From NCBI GenBank assembly GCA_964591925.1, contig CAZQCK010000003.1:2936-57767 (forward strand): DNA of 54,832 nucleotides, given 5' to 3'. A program made the translations under genes and the position numbers. This document shows, one piece after another, positions 10,054 to 42,253 of this stretch. How positions within the stretch are numbered: position 1 is the stretch's first letter; the number at the start of each line of letters is the position of its first letter. The notes below the pieces were generated by a model that saw only the letters and a list, made by a program, of their open reading frames with translations, did no database searches and had not been told where the DNA came from. Source of the DNA: an uncultured Desulfobacterales bacterium. GTDB lineage: Bacteria; Desulfobacterota; DSM-4660; Desulfatiglandales; HGW-15.

Positions 10054-10245
10054 GTGCCCATACATAAAGGAATCTTGGGCACTGCTAAGTTTGAAGAAAT
10101 CGTAAAAACTGAATTCTCTCGCAAAGACGCCAAGACGCCAAGAAAAAACCGTTTAATATCAATCAAGTCACTTTGCGACCTTTGCAGCTTGGCACGAAAT
10201 CTTGGCTTTTTGCGAGGCCATCAAGTTTCCAATTCAGAGGGGAGG
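10054..10245. repeat. Direct repeat copy 2, interrupted by a MITE
   Basis: GTGCCCATACATAAAGGAATCTTGGGCACTGCTAAGTTT-[130-bp insert]-AAGTTTCCAATTCAGAGGGGAGG. Confidence 0.85.
10093..10222. mobile_element. MITE family A (130 bp, imperfect TIRs, 6-bp target duplication AAGTTT)
   Basis: Ends GAAGAAATCGTAAAAA / TTTTTGCGAGGCCATC; AAGTTT at 10087-10092 and 10223-10228; empty site visible at 9779-9784; internal CGCAAAGACGCCAAG...CTTTGCG inverted repeats. Confidence 0.8.
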
Positions 10246-22446: not shown

Positions 22447-22471
22447 TCTTGGCGTCTTTGCGAGAGAATAC
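22447..22471 (-). repeat. Fragment of the MITE family A interior
   Basis: TCTTGGCGTCTTTGCGAGAGAATAC matches 40257-40281 and the reverse complement of ~10112-10134. Confidence 0.7.
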
Positions 22472-38873: not shown

Positions 38874-39629
38874 TCAGCGCTCACCCCGATTGATCAGCGC
38901 CGCGGCATAACCGGCGCCGAAGCCGTTGTCGATGTTGACCACGGTCACCCCGGCGGCGCACGTGTTGAGCATCCCGAGCAGTGCGGCTATGCCTCCAAAG
39001 CTTGCCCCGTACCCCACGCTGGTGGGCACGGCGATCACGGGTTTGTCCATGAGACCGGCCACCACACTCGGCAGGGCCCCCTCCATTCCGGCCACCACCA
39101 CCAGAACCTCGGCCCGCACGATCCGGTCACGGTGGGCGAGGACCCGATGAATCCCGGAGACCCCCAGGTCGTGGAGGATTTCCACGTCATTCCCCATGAA
39201 CCGGGCCGTGATCGCCGCCTCCTCGGCCACGGGGACATCCGAGGTCCCGGCGCTGATCACAAGGATCGTTCCCCGCCCCACGGCCTCGTTCTGATGCCGC
39301 ACCAGGGTCAGGCACCTGGCCCTGTCATGGTATTCACTCTCCGGATAGGCCTTCTTGATCTCCTCCGCCTTGCGGTTGGAGAGCCGGGTGACAAGGATGT
39401 TCTCACCACGCTCGAGCATCCGCTCCATGATCGCCAGGATATCCCCGGCCCGCTTTTGTTCACCGAAGACCACCTCGGACATGCCGCGCCGCAAAGAGCG
39501 GTGGTGGTCGATGCACGCAAACCCGATATTCTCGAAGGGAAGGTCCCGCAGGGCGGCCAAGGCCTCTTCCACACCGACCCGGCCTGCATGCACCTCCGCC
39601 AGAAGCCTTCTCATACGTTCTTTGCCCAC
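38874..39629 (-). CDS. larB: Nickel pincer cofactor biosynthesis protein LarB
   Basis: IDHHRSLRRG, AGTSDVPVAEEA, AGMEGALPSV, VPTSVGYGA, VVNIDNGFGA. Confidence 0.95.
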   Translation of the reverse strand: MGKERMRRLLAEVHAGRVGVEEALAALRDLPFENIGFACIDHHRSLRRGMSEVVFGEQKRAGDILAIMERMLERGENILVTRLSNRKAEEIKKAYPESEYHDRARCLTLVRHQNEAVGRGTILVISAGTSDVPVAEEAAITARFMGNDVEILHDLGVSGIHRVLAHRDRIVRAEVLVVVAGMEGALPSVVAGLMDKPVIAVPTSVGYGASFGGIAALLGMLNTCAAGVTVVNIDNGFGAGYAAALINRGER

Positions 39630-39642
39630 GGACCCTCCCCCT

Positions 39643-39999
39643 TCAGGCCAGACCTTCACTGCGAAGAAACGTCATGGCCCGCTGAAGAATGTCGGTCGTC
39701 ATGCTCAAGGCCTTGGACAGGTGACCCACAGACTCCTCGGGGACACCCGATTCCATCATCACCAGGGCTCGCTCCAAGGGAGGGAGCACTTCCCCCCAGG
39801 CGGGATCCCCGGTGATGGACCGAACAAGGGACACCTCGTTTCCAACCATGGCGCAGAGCCCCTTGACCACCTGCAGTCCTCCGGATCGTTCCACGCCGCC
39901 CAATCCCTCGAGCATCTGAATGCCCTGAGAGGCCCAAATCAACCCGGCCTTGATCTTCTCTCCCTGGGAGAGGGCGGAAACTGCTGCTTGTTTGTCCAT
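39643..39999 (-). CDS. Hypothetical helical protein upstream of larB
   Basis: AAGGA RBS, 118 aa, typical codon use, ends 13 nt before the larB start. Confidence 0.75.
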   Translation of the reverse strand: MDKQAAVSALSQGEKIKAGLIWASQGIQMLEGLGGVERSGGLQVVKGLCAMVGNEVSLVRSITGDPAWGEVLPPLERALVMMESGVPEESVGHLSKALSMTTDILQRAMTFLRSEGLA

Positions 40000-40217
40000 C
40001 GGTTCGTCCTTTTCGAATCATCTGCCCGGCCCCGGTAGGTCCCGGTCAGGAACACGCTGGAACATGACCCTACCACCACCCCAGACCCAAAAGCAAGCCG
40101 GTGCGACACTCCACGCCCGGGCCCGCTTTACGGTGTTGAAAAACCCGCTCAAGCTCCACCGCCGGCCTCAGTACCGGAAGCCAATCATCAGATCCATGAA
40201 TGCCGGTCCTCAAATCC

Positions 40218-40296
40218 ACTTGATAATGTTGATATCAATAGGTTTTTTTCTTGGCGTCTTGGCGTCTTTGCGAGAGAATACAGTTTTTTCGTCTTC
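40218..40296 (-). repeat. Partial copy of MITE family A (left half, inverted)
   Basis: Reverse complement AAAAACTGTATTCTCTCGCAAAGACGCCAAGACGCCAAGAAAAAA nearly matches 10104-10150. Confidence 0.85.
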
Positions 40297-40484
40297 GTAA
40301 TACGTATGGCACTGAAAAGGTGGAGCGTGGCCACCCGGTACAAGATCATTGGATGGTGTTGACAACAAACCCCTATCTGTTGTTATATGTGGGTATAAGG
40401 AATGGAGCAACGCTCTTGGAATCGGATGCTCTTTCTATCATTGCATGACGGTGTTGGAAGTGCCCCCTTGAACAGGAAAAGGAC

Positions 40485-40820
40485 ATGACTGCCTTTCGGT
40501 GGGAGACGGAGAAAGAGAAGCGAGAGCAGGCGGCATTGGAAAGACACGCCAGGCTTGCCAGGCTTTTCAAGGAGGATCGTTTCACGTTTGAACGGGAACG
40601 TCGCCGCATGATCGATGAGGTTATTCAATCCGCCGAAGACGACGATTTGAAAGCGAAGCTGCACGCGATGCAGGACGAGTGGAACCGAAGAATGCAGGGC
40701 GCCGGTTCTCTCCACAACCGTTTCGTGCTGGCCAAGACCTTTTTCTGGGAGCATTTCCACGGCGTCTGGCAACCGGCCGTCCAGGAAATGAACCGGTTGC
40801 TCAACCGTTCCGAGGAGTAG
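40485..40820 (+). CDS. Hypothetical protein, DUF3135-like
   Basis: AAGGA RBS; LFKEDRFTFERERRRMIDEVIQSA...LHAMQ pattern resembles DUF3135. Confidence 0.7.
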   Translation: MTAFRWETEKEKREQAALERHARLARLFKEDRFTFERERRRMIDEVIQSAEDDDLKAKLHAMQDEWNRRMQGAGSLHNRFVLAKTFFWEHFHGVWQPAVQEMNRLLNRSEE

Positions 40821-40974
40821 CGCTCTTTTCGGCCGTTGCAACCACAGCGGCGATCCGCCTGTGCAGGAACTCCCCTATCCGCAGTGCAAACGGCTTGCCC
40901 GCTTCACCCATTCTGGCGGCCTCGAACGCCGCATTCAAGGCGATGAGTTCGGCTTCGAGCCGTTGCTCTTTCAT
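40801..40974 (-). CDS. 57-aa micro-protein resembling the MCP signalling hairpin tip
   Basis: Not in the ORF track. MKEQRLEAELIALNAAFEAARMGEAGKPFALRIGEFLHRRIAAVVATAEKSATPRNG*; GAGGGAGG RBS; compare MCP consensus LLALNAAIEAARAGExGRGFA. Confidence 0.7.
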   Translation of the reverse strand: MKEQRLEAELIALNAAFEAARMGEAGKPFALRIGEFLHRRIAAVVATAEKSATPRNG

Positions 40975-41057
40975 GCGTTCCCTCCCTCACGTCCGCCGGA
41001 TTCGCGACCCATGCACTCCAGTGAAAACGACCTGCCGGCCTCTTGTAATGTGAAGCA

Positions 41058-41072
41058 GCATGAAACGTGCCA
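41058..41072 (-). promoter_or_regulatory. Sigma54 (-24/-12) promoter
   Basis: TGGCACGTTTCATGC versus consensus TGGCACG-N4-TTGC, with correct GG-N10-GC spacing; ~84 nt upstream of the micro-ORF ATG. Confidence 0.7.
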
Positions 41073-41209
41073 CATTGGAGGCAGACCTATCGCCCGGTTT
41101 TTCAAAGGATTCAACAACGGACCTTCCTGAGCGGAGAGGAGGCGTCAACTTTCGGGGTATTTTCCGCCGCACACACGTCAATTTCCTGACTGGCCTGAAC
41201 ATCCACGCC

Positions 41210-41238
41210 TTGACACCAAAGCGGCGGGCTCCTATAGT
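41210..41238 (+). promoter_or_regulatory. Sigma70 promoter of hdrB
   Basis: TTGACA-N17-TATAGT. Confidence 0.65.
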
Positions 41239-41377
41239 CGAGCTGAAAATTGATCGCCCGGCAAGGCACCTTCTTTCCCGGCGTTCTTTGGTTCCGGGCC
41301 CCAGACAAAAAGCGCTCTTTGAACTCGTCAAGGGGTGTCACCACAATCACGGCGATGCGCACAAATCGAGGTATTCG

Positions 41378-42253
41378 ATGAAATACGCCCTCTTTCTCGG
41401 CTGCACCATACCGGCACGTTCCCGCAACTACGAACTCTCTTCTCGAAAGGTGGCCGAACGGTTGGGGTTGGAGCTGGTGGACCTGGACTCCTTCATATGC
41501 TGCGGGTTTCCCGTTCGAAGCGCAGATCTTCGATCAGCCACACTCCTGGGGGCCTACAATCTCGCCCTGGCGCAAAAGCAGGGCCTGGACATCTGCACCT
41601 TGTGCAGTTCCTGCACTTCCGCACTCACGGAGACGGTCCATCGTCTGGATCACGACGATTCTGAACGGAAAGCCGTAAACCAGGACCTCGATCGGTTGGG
41701 ACTGCGGTACGAGAAAGGGACCCGGGTCCGCCATTTCGCCCGGGTGCTCTACGAAGAGATCGGGAAGAACGAGATCGAACAACATATTCAAAAGCCGCTC
41801 GACGGGCTGAGGGTGGCCGCCCACTACGGCTGTCACTACCTGAAGCCCAGCGAGATCTACGATGCATTCGACGACCCGGAAAACCCCAGGACGCTGGACG
41901 AGCTGACCGCTTTGACCGGAGCCGTTCCCGTACATTACAAAGACAAAAAGCGGTGCTGTGGTGGACCGTTGTTGCCCGTAGACGAGAAGGTTTCCATGTC
42001 CGTGGCCAAAGAGAAGCTCGAGGACATCAAGGAGGCGGGAGCCGACGCAATCACCCTGGTTTGCCCCTTTTGTGCGGTCATGTACGACAGCAACCAGAAG
42101 GGGATCGAATCGGAGTTCGACGCGGAATACAACCTACCGGTCCTCTACCTCCCCCAGCTTCTAGGCATGGCCATGGGATTCGACCGCAAGGAATTGGGGC
42201 TGAACATGAACGTGGTCAAGACGAAAAAGCTCCTCGCACGCTTTTTCGAATGA
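41378..42253 (+). CDS. hdrB: Heterodisulfide reductase subunit B family protein
   Basis: FLGC, two CCG motifs (ICCGF, RCCGG), CSSC, AHYGCH, CPFC. Start MKYALF with GAGG RBS. Confidence 0.93.
   Translation: MKYALFLGCTIPARSRNYELSSRKVAERLGLELVDLDSFICCGFPVRSADLRSATLLGAYNLALAQKQGLDICTLCSSCTSALTETVHRLDHDDSERKAVNQDLDRLGLRYEKGTRVRHFARVLYEEIGKNEIEQHIQKPLDGLRVAAHYGCHYLKPSEIYDAFDDPENPRTLDELTALTGAVPVHYKDKKRCCGGPLLPVDEKVSMSVAKEKLEDIKEAGADAITLVCPFCAVMYDSNQKGIESEFDAEYNLPVLYLPQLLGMAMGFDRKELGLNMNVVKTKKLLARFFE

Follow-up and report, generated by a model that had tools for sequence, protein, structure and literature searches.

In chemosensory arrays, which rank with the most thoroughly studied signalling machines, the known components that bind the tips of chemoreceptors (MCPs) are CheA, CheW and CheW-like proteins. 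The locus described here raises the question of whether such a tip can also be a gene product in its own right and, if so, what it would act on. It lies in a stretch of 54,832 nucleotides of DNA from an uncultured Desulfobacterales bacterium, the whole of which is called the window below. The genome of this bacterium (3.31 Mb in 215 contigs) carries seven full-length MCP genes together with CheW and CheA genes, and it also carries one short frame, here called the mini gene, whose 57-aa product matches an MCP tip. The first-pass annotation of the window had suggested that this frame may be a deliberately expressed small gene and not an internal MCP fragment.

The mini gene encodes a chemoreceptor-tip hairpin

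The frame, its strong ribosome-binding site and its near-consensus -24/-12 site, as proposed at first reading, were all located on the minus strand. The mini gene itself, identified by the ORF call and a Pfam tip match, occupies 40801..40974 with the stop codon included; the Shine-Dalgarno sequence GAGGGAGG lies at 40981..40988, 6 nt before the ATG; and the sigma54-type promoter TGGCACGTTTCATGCT lies at 41057..41072. The gene is single-copy, without mini paralogues in its own genome. The protein begins with MKEQRLEAELIALNAAFEAARMGEAGKPFALRIGEF, and its residues 9-36 align with positions 50-77 of the 172 positions of the MCPsignal profile (Pfam PF00015; E 8.4e-6, 26.2 bits). This score, as well as the 22.5 bits obtained in the genome scan, is below the gathering cut-off of 34.6 bits, which some relatives of the mini protein pass (56.3 bits in G060 and 48.9 bits in G032). 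A profile search against PDB sequences aligned the mini family without gaps to Tsr 372-416, and therefore residue i of the window's mini protein corresponds to Tsr residue i+367.

The hairpin-tip motif and the U-turn of MCPs are present in the profile match, in the Tsr alignment and in the helices of the AF2 model (59-row alignment), which span residues 2-21 and 23-51 with a mean pLDDT of 85.6. Foldseek with this model placed MCP tips at the top (6s1k, 1qu7, 2ch7 and 3g67), at E values of 0.6-4 that are not significant for a 57-residue hairpin. No second Pfam domain was found in the protein at E <= 1 except a chance-level HicB match, and the Pfam scan detected no sensor, TM, HAMP or PAS input module. 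The methylation (adaptation) helices and the flexible bundle are likewise absent from this 57-aa product, which leaves only 28 of the 172 MCPsignal positions matched and bears out the first description of it as a tip without transmembrane, HAMP, sensor or methylation segments. Further MCP similarity was not found in the DNA flanking the mini gene, nor was an MCP remnant on either side. The mini protein is a soluble helical hairpin and an evolutionary derivative of the MCP tip: it shares both its sequence motif and its predicted hairpin with the tip described by PF00015, but keeps only ~35 of the ~300 residues of the signalling domain.

The window around the mini gene contains housekeeping and metabolic genes. 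Neither a chemotaxis gene nor a sigma54 activator was found among the ORFs scanned, in agreement with the earlier remark that chemotaxis genes are missing nearby (none among 42 ORFs scanned; 57 called plus three extra frames). An Rfam scan of 39500-42000 gave no match, and the terminator scan returned a weak hairpin with a poor T-run at 40794-40807 (-), just past the mini stop codon. Several features of the surroundings may be recorded for their own sake. A 118-aa ORF without Pfam match (39643-39999, -) lies downstream of an AIR-carboxylase-like (LarB-type) gene and is kept beside the same pair of genes, mini and its DUF3135 neighbour (see below), in G016. On the other side, the longest frame of a CCG/HdrB-like gene (41060-42253, +) begins at 41060, within the mini promoter; the conserved part of this gene starts from an ATG at 41378, and such a shorter gene agrees with a TTGACA-17-TATAGT site seen at 41210-41238. 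A dispersed repeat of 45-60 nt with the core TTTTCTTAGCGTCTTGGCGTCTTTGCGAGAGAATACAGTTTTT occurs in the window at 40229-40288, ~10104-10148 and ~22447-22471. It gave 108 blastn hits across the genome contigs, often near sigma54-like sites, and one copy lies upstream of the DUF3135 gene.

Conservation and selection of the mini family

All nine genomes of the genus, and three families of the order, contain short homologues of 52-80 aa with their own start and ribosome-binding site. At the equivalent position, a short frame carrying the core of mini is found in 8 of 8 other genomes of the genus, in G016 from another genus and in G032 from another family, and in each of the 10 relatives first inspected the product has 52-76 aa and the start codon stands behind a G-rich Shine-Dalgarno sequence. 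G016, G032, G048, G060 and G110 also have short homologues with their own Shine-Dalgarno sequence and start, and further mini genes adjoin a DUF3135 gene in G042, G108, G015, G181, G010, G024 and G009; counts over such related genomes are not independent of one another. With the mini profile, the short frames in the 209 genomes of the order score 66-88 bits versus at most 62 bits for full-length MCPs. When all representative proteins were searched, the best 150 matches included 15 of at most 100 aa that align to the mini profile end to end. Many proteins of 52-85 aa from public metagenomes match the profile as well, with the core L..LLALNAAFEAARAGE.G.EF.V.VDE, and the homologues in public records are called 'hypothetical protein' where they are named at all.

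The dN/dS ratio (Nei-Gojobori) over the 30-codon core is 0.07-0.47 in 15 non-independent pairs, and 0.16-0.79 across whole mini ORFs, with one pair saturated. Both checks suggested at first reading, for short homologues and for dN/dS, therefore point the same way: homologues with their own start and ribosome-binding site are present in three families, and the core evolves under purifying selection. Since the start, the Shine-Dalgarno sequence and the sigma54 site are kept in relatives as well, the original view of a deliberately expressed small gene stands. The mini ORF represents a real gene that is conserved and subject to purifying selection.

Parts of the window were also found in four RNA-library runs (X17-X20) at 90-99% identity. 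A 211-nt contig from X18 covers 40778-40988, which includes the entire mini ORF; another RNA-library contig covers 40406-40658, and two more run from 40685 and 40723, respectively, to 40873. The stretch 40989-41359 has no RNA-library contig, a gap to which no weight attaches, and the contigs are uninformative about transcript ends and strand. Variant copies of mini in the RNA libraries carry 4-5 substitutions with the frame still open. These contigs support transcription of the mini gene weakly, because they are unstranded and could stem from DNA carry-over or from the 3' UTR of DUF3135.

A sigma54-type promoter and an upstream palindrome

The promoter of the window has the form GG-N10-GC with one mismatch to TGGCACG-N4-TTGCW, and from its position the mini transcript would start near 41046 and have a 5' UTR of ~70 nt. 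The pattern alone is at chance level, with 0.57 matches expected per window and at least one match in 47 of 100 shuffles, so that the weight of the window site comes from its conservation in relatives. We scanned 20 mini loci, with G015 left out, using the motif TGGCAYG-N4-YTGCW, in which GG and GC were fixed and Y at two positions was added once the first loci had been inspected. A site of at least 10/12 lies within 500 nt upstream of mini in 16 of the 20 loci and one of at least 11/12 in 14, against backgrounds in this genome of 0.044 and 0.006, respectively, per 500 nt per strand. No site of at least 10/12 was found within that distance in G016, G042, G108 and G024.

Alignment of the mini upstream regions brought out a second element, the palindrome GTCAGGAAATTGAC (41177..41190, -), which lies 118 nt upstream of the -24 element, has the FleQ-box pattern and is a candidate enhancer (bEBP) site. 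Of the 16 mini loci with a sigma54 site, 11 have a GTC[AG]-N6-[CT]GAC palindrome 85-124 nt upstream of -24, against a background of 0.008 per 190 nt. The GTCA-N6-TGAC palindrome agrees in form with the FleQ consensus of P. aeruginosa, GTCaNTAAAtTGAC, as quoted in section 9 of PMC6120874, and a passage of the same paper gives hundreds of matches to this consensus in another genome. The mini gene thereby resembles the sigma54 flagellar regulons of FleQ in having a -24/-12 promoter and an upstream GTCA-N6-TGAC box, a likeness of pattern alone.

Across the whole genome (G000), we found 80 sigma54-like sites of at least 11/12, of which 8 have the palindrome 30-220 nt upstream. The combination of palindrome and sigma54 site precedes the mini gene, cheA on C31 with the same spacing of 118 nt, an MCP gene on C63, a gene with a CheZ domain (cheZ-like) on C61, flgN and its divergent neighbour on C34, and a PAS kinase gene near cheW on C104; one further site is on C98. 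The Pfam identities of the targets come from 20 downstream ORFs chosen by eye from the 80 sites. Classical sigma54 targets, amtB and glnA among them, were recovered by the same site set. Strong sigma54-like sites before amtB, glnA, NifX-like and PilZ genes (C2, C117, C113 and C120) trace the outline of a regulon, and the genome encodes one rpoN (Sigma54_DBD gene) and 22 strong Sigma54_activat genes. Because the architecture of palindrome and sigma54 site is common to che and flagellar genes, the mini gene looks like a member of their sigma54 regulon. Judged by this shared architecture in front of chemotaxis and flagellar genes, it is probable that the cell produces the mini protein along with the chemosensory apparatus.

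An invariable convergent neighbour, DUF3135

A feature absent from the first-pass annotation is the convergent neighbour of the mini gene, a DUF3135-family gene (Pfam PF11333) of 111 aa at 40485..40820 (+), the 3' end of which overlaps mini by 20 nt. It matches profile positions 6-76 of 81 with 27.8 bits versus a gathering cut-off of 22.7 bits and represents a distant PF11333 branch, members of the family in another class scoring 70-105 bits. The mini gene is convergent with DUF3135 at 21 of 21 genome loci and at 15 of 15 assessable metagenome loci, that is, those with downstream DNA present (one more is at a contig end), many of which are close relatives of each other. The same pair occurs in L163, another named deltaproteobacterial record. 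The link of the mini gene to DUF3135 is obligate.

Of the 209 genomes of the order, 58 contain PF11333, at 61 loci in all. When these were scanned in six frames with HMMs, 21 showed a mini gene and 5 a full-length MCP no more than 1.5 kb away. At the 40 loci without mini, the convergent neighbours include kinases, a small Cys-rich ORF and TraB-like genes. The Cys-rich ORF encodes 67-78 aa, is convergent with DUF3135 at L073, L087, L072, L074, L077 and L080 (G151, G152, G082, G084-G086) and has the pattern ..VRCGDC..F..FPN.KGHN.PQ.LGKCLA..WDGN.GQWP.L.HPC..; it may be another family of small DUF3135 partners.

In G194, DUF3135 is next to a cheY-Z-B-X-D-A-R cluster. At this locus (L145, G194:C11), the gene has a receiver protein on one side and a sigma54 activator without receiver on the other, and the adjoining che cluster starts with another activator. 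An MCP-tip match is present in all 58 genomes with DUF3135 versus 92 of the 151 others, a comparison uncorrected for kinship. G060, which is 93% complete, contains the pair and CheA, and a full-length MCP was not found in it. In another class, DUF3135 occurs in 50 of 151 genomes. No tip-like frame was present at the 30 DUF3135 loci fetched from that class, and 12 annotated loci had no chemotaxis neighbours, rho and SNase being among the genes found there. We therefore rejected a general chemotaxis link for PF11333; the link to chemotaxis is specific to the present lineage.

A predicted complex on the CheA/CheW-binding face

The AF2 model of DUF3135 has four helices with a pLDDT of 90.1, and Foldseek found no significant PDB neighbour for it. 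Complex prediction with DUF3135 (61-row alignment) and mini gave a score of 0.64 versus 0.01 for the best control. Among solved complexes, 116 of 157 attain this mark, as do 2 of 215 mismatched pairs; since the alignments used for the prediction were our own, these counts apply only approximately. Three runs agree in at least 90% of contacts, with a partner pLDDT of at least 64. Since there is no solved fold like that of DUF3135, it is unlikely that the prediction passed on the strength of a memorised complex.

In the predicted interface, mini residues 2-38 face DUF3135 residues 13-98, and the contacts of lowest error involve L6, L10, L13, N14, F17, A20 and R21 of mini, which correspond to Tsr 373, 377, 380, 381, 384, 387 and 388. 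All seven Tsr positions appear among the MCP/CheA-P5 or MCP/CheW interface residues given in Table 1 of the review PMC13098124, so that the tightest mini contact positions (7/7) fall among MCP residues that touch CheA-P5 or CheW. On the DUF3135 side, the interface holds 16 of the 25 conserved positions (P = 0.001). The mini protein is thus predicted to bind DUF3135 via the face that MCPs use for CheA and CheW. The conserved interface positions are kept also in DUF3135 copies without a mini gene, which hints that DUF3135 may bind something tip-like in those genomes too. DUF3135 is predicted to lie on the same N-helix face of the tip as CheW, CheA-P5 and CheV but is an all-helical protein of 111 aa and does not have the SH3-like fold of CheW.

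Origin from full-length chemoreceptors

The first-pass annotation had named a full-length MCP at this locus in relatives as the sign of a decay product. Such MCPs do exist: in G129, G153 and G146 a full-length MCP stands beside DUF3135 in place of mini, the order in G129 being cheW-MCP convergent with DUF3135, and in G108 and G024 an MCP gene on the strand of mini immediately precedes it. What had been named as a refutation is thus in part observed, with three MCPs in place and two upstream, but they show the origin of mini, not its decay. The family covers a range of divergence from its parent. The mini proteins P0054 and P0059 and that of G060 are close to the tip sequence of host MCPs, and the mini protein of the window is a diverged member.

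Short tip-like frames (66-112 aa) without DUF3135 nearby were also seen at L156, L160, L154, L194 and L213, in unrelated lineages, with records labelled Proteobacteria, Burkholderiales and Paraburkholderia and metagenome contigs. These frames could represent either tip-only genes of independent origin or broken MCPs.

Discussion

What could a receptor tip do when it is made on its own? Our preferred reading, which we put forward tentatively, is that the mini protein is a mimic of the receptor tip, made with the chemosensory apparatus and partnered by DUF3135, and that it modulates access to the tips. The sigma54 promoter and the candidate palindromic enhancer site upstream would drive transcription of mini, and the conserved face of its product, equivalent to the residues with which MCPs touch CheA-P5 and CheW, would be clamped by the four-helix DUF3135. 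The mini protein might then compete with real receptor tips for DUF3135, or with DUF3135 for a tip-binding surface, and such competition could tune the coupling of receptors to CheA and CheW, the effect on arrays being the most conjectural step. A more specific version, which we regard as possible but doubtful, would make the DUF3135 of this lineage a non-CheW class of tip-binding protein and mini its tip decoy, the two forming a partner-switch of the sigma54 motility regulon that gates the tips for CheA and CheW.

The parent family of the mini protein and the logic of a decoy are already known. Soluble cytoplasmic MCP fragments of E. coli, laboratory constructs of well over 100 residues, activate or jam CheA signalling. 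Like mini, they are receptor pieces without input domains that can occupy the binding sites of partners, but mini occurs naturally, is much shorter, and comes with a promoter of its own and a dedicated neighbour. Eukaryotic microProteins retain the interaction domain of a larger family by itself and act by titration. The mini gene follows the same logic of an interaction-domain derivative expressed separately; it differs in being bacterial and apparently sigma54-controlled, and in its predicted binding to DUF3135, which is not its parent. The texts reached by full-text literature searches held no description of a natural tip-only chemoreceptor protein and no functional study of DUF3135, which is mentioned in one unrelated paper among them.

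Among the alternatives, the one that survives best, although we think it rather unlikely, dispenses with DUF3135 as a target: the mini hairpin, probably as a dimer, would itself bind CheW or CheA-P5 or enter receptor trimers-of-dimers and so titrate or poison arrays, and DUF3135 would serve as its antagonist or chaperone. The residues that do not vary among minis match MCP positions in contact with CheA-P5 and CheW, the gene appears to be co-regulated with che genes, and the minis P0054, P0059 and that of G060, compared with host MCP tips, are ~85% identical to a real tip over ~40 residues, all of which would suit such a direct action. It accords poorly with family-specific changes at contact positions, however, since nearly all minis have F for the V or I of MCPs at Tsr position 384 (V384 in Tsr) and L for F at 373, and the equivalent of Tsr R404 is missing from the minis of this genus. 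Moreover, DUF3135 is far more conserved than mini and often occurs without it, a poor fit to a mere antidote.

It is less probable again that the mini-DUF3135 pair acts outside arrays, for example in feedback on the sigma54/enhancer-binding-protein hierarchy or on another helical-bundle target, with the tip recruited as a convenient scaffold. The DUF3135 genes of the other class without chemotaxis neighbours, the two sigma54 activators that flank DUF3135 in G194 and the lack of a detectable MCP in G060 would agree with a role of this kind. Yet MCPs are adjacent at five loci and a che cluster at one, every one of the 58 genomes with DUF3135 has MCP tips, and the residues retained in mini are specifically those of the CheA/CheW-binding face.

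The two remaining explanations deny the mini protein a main role or any role. That the chief function of the sigma54 transcript is to act as an antisense RNA on the mRNA of the convergent DUF3135 gene, with the ORF secondary, is very improbable: the convergence is invariable and the genes overlap by 20 nt in the window and by 13 nt in G110, but the overlap is not kept, with gaps of 17-94 nt in G005, G048, G060 and G032, and the selection acts at codon level and the Shine-Dalgarno sequence is conserved. Scarcely credible is a relic without function, left behind by the deletion of an MCP gene, since despite the full-length MCPs at the same position in G129, G153 and G146 the short form persists in three families with its own start, Shine-Dalgarno sequence and promoter and a core dN/dS of 0.07-0.47, and further MCP remnants are absent from its flanks.

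If the preferred reading of a receptor-tip mimic partnered by DUF3135 is true, the mini protein would offer structural biology a natural and minimal means of probing the receptor tip interface, and the pair would provide the first functional lead for the DUF3135 branch in this lineage. A tip-only protein with a dedicated partner in a chemotaxis and flagellar regulon would then constitute a new layer of control on chemosensory arrays.
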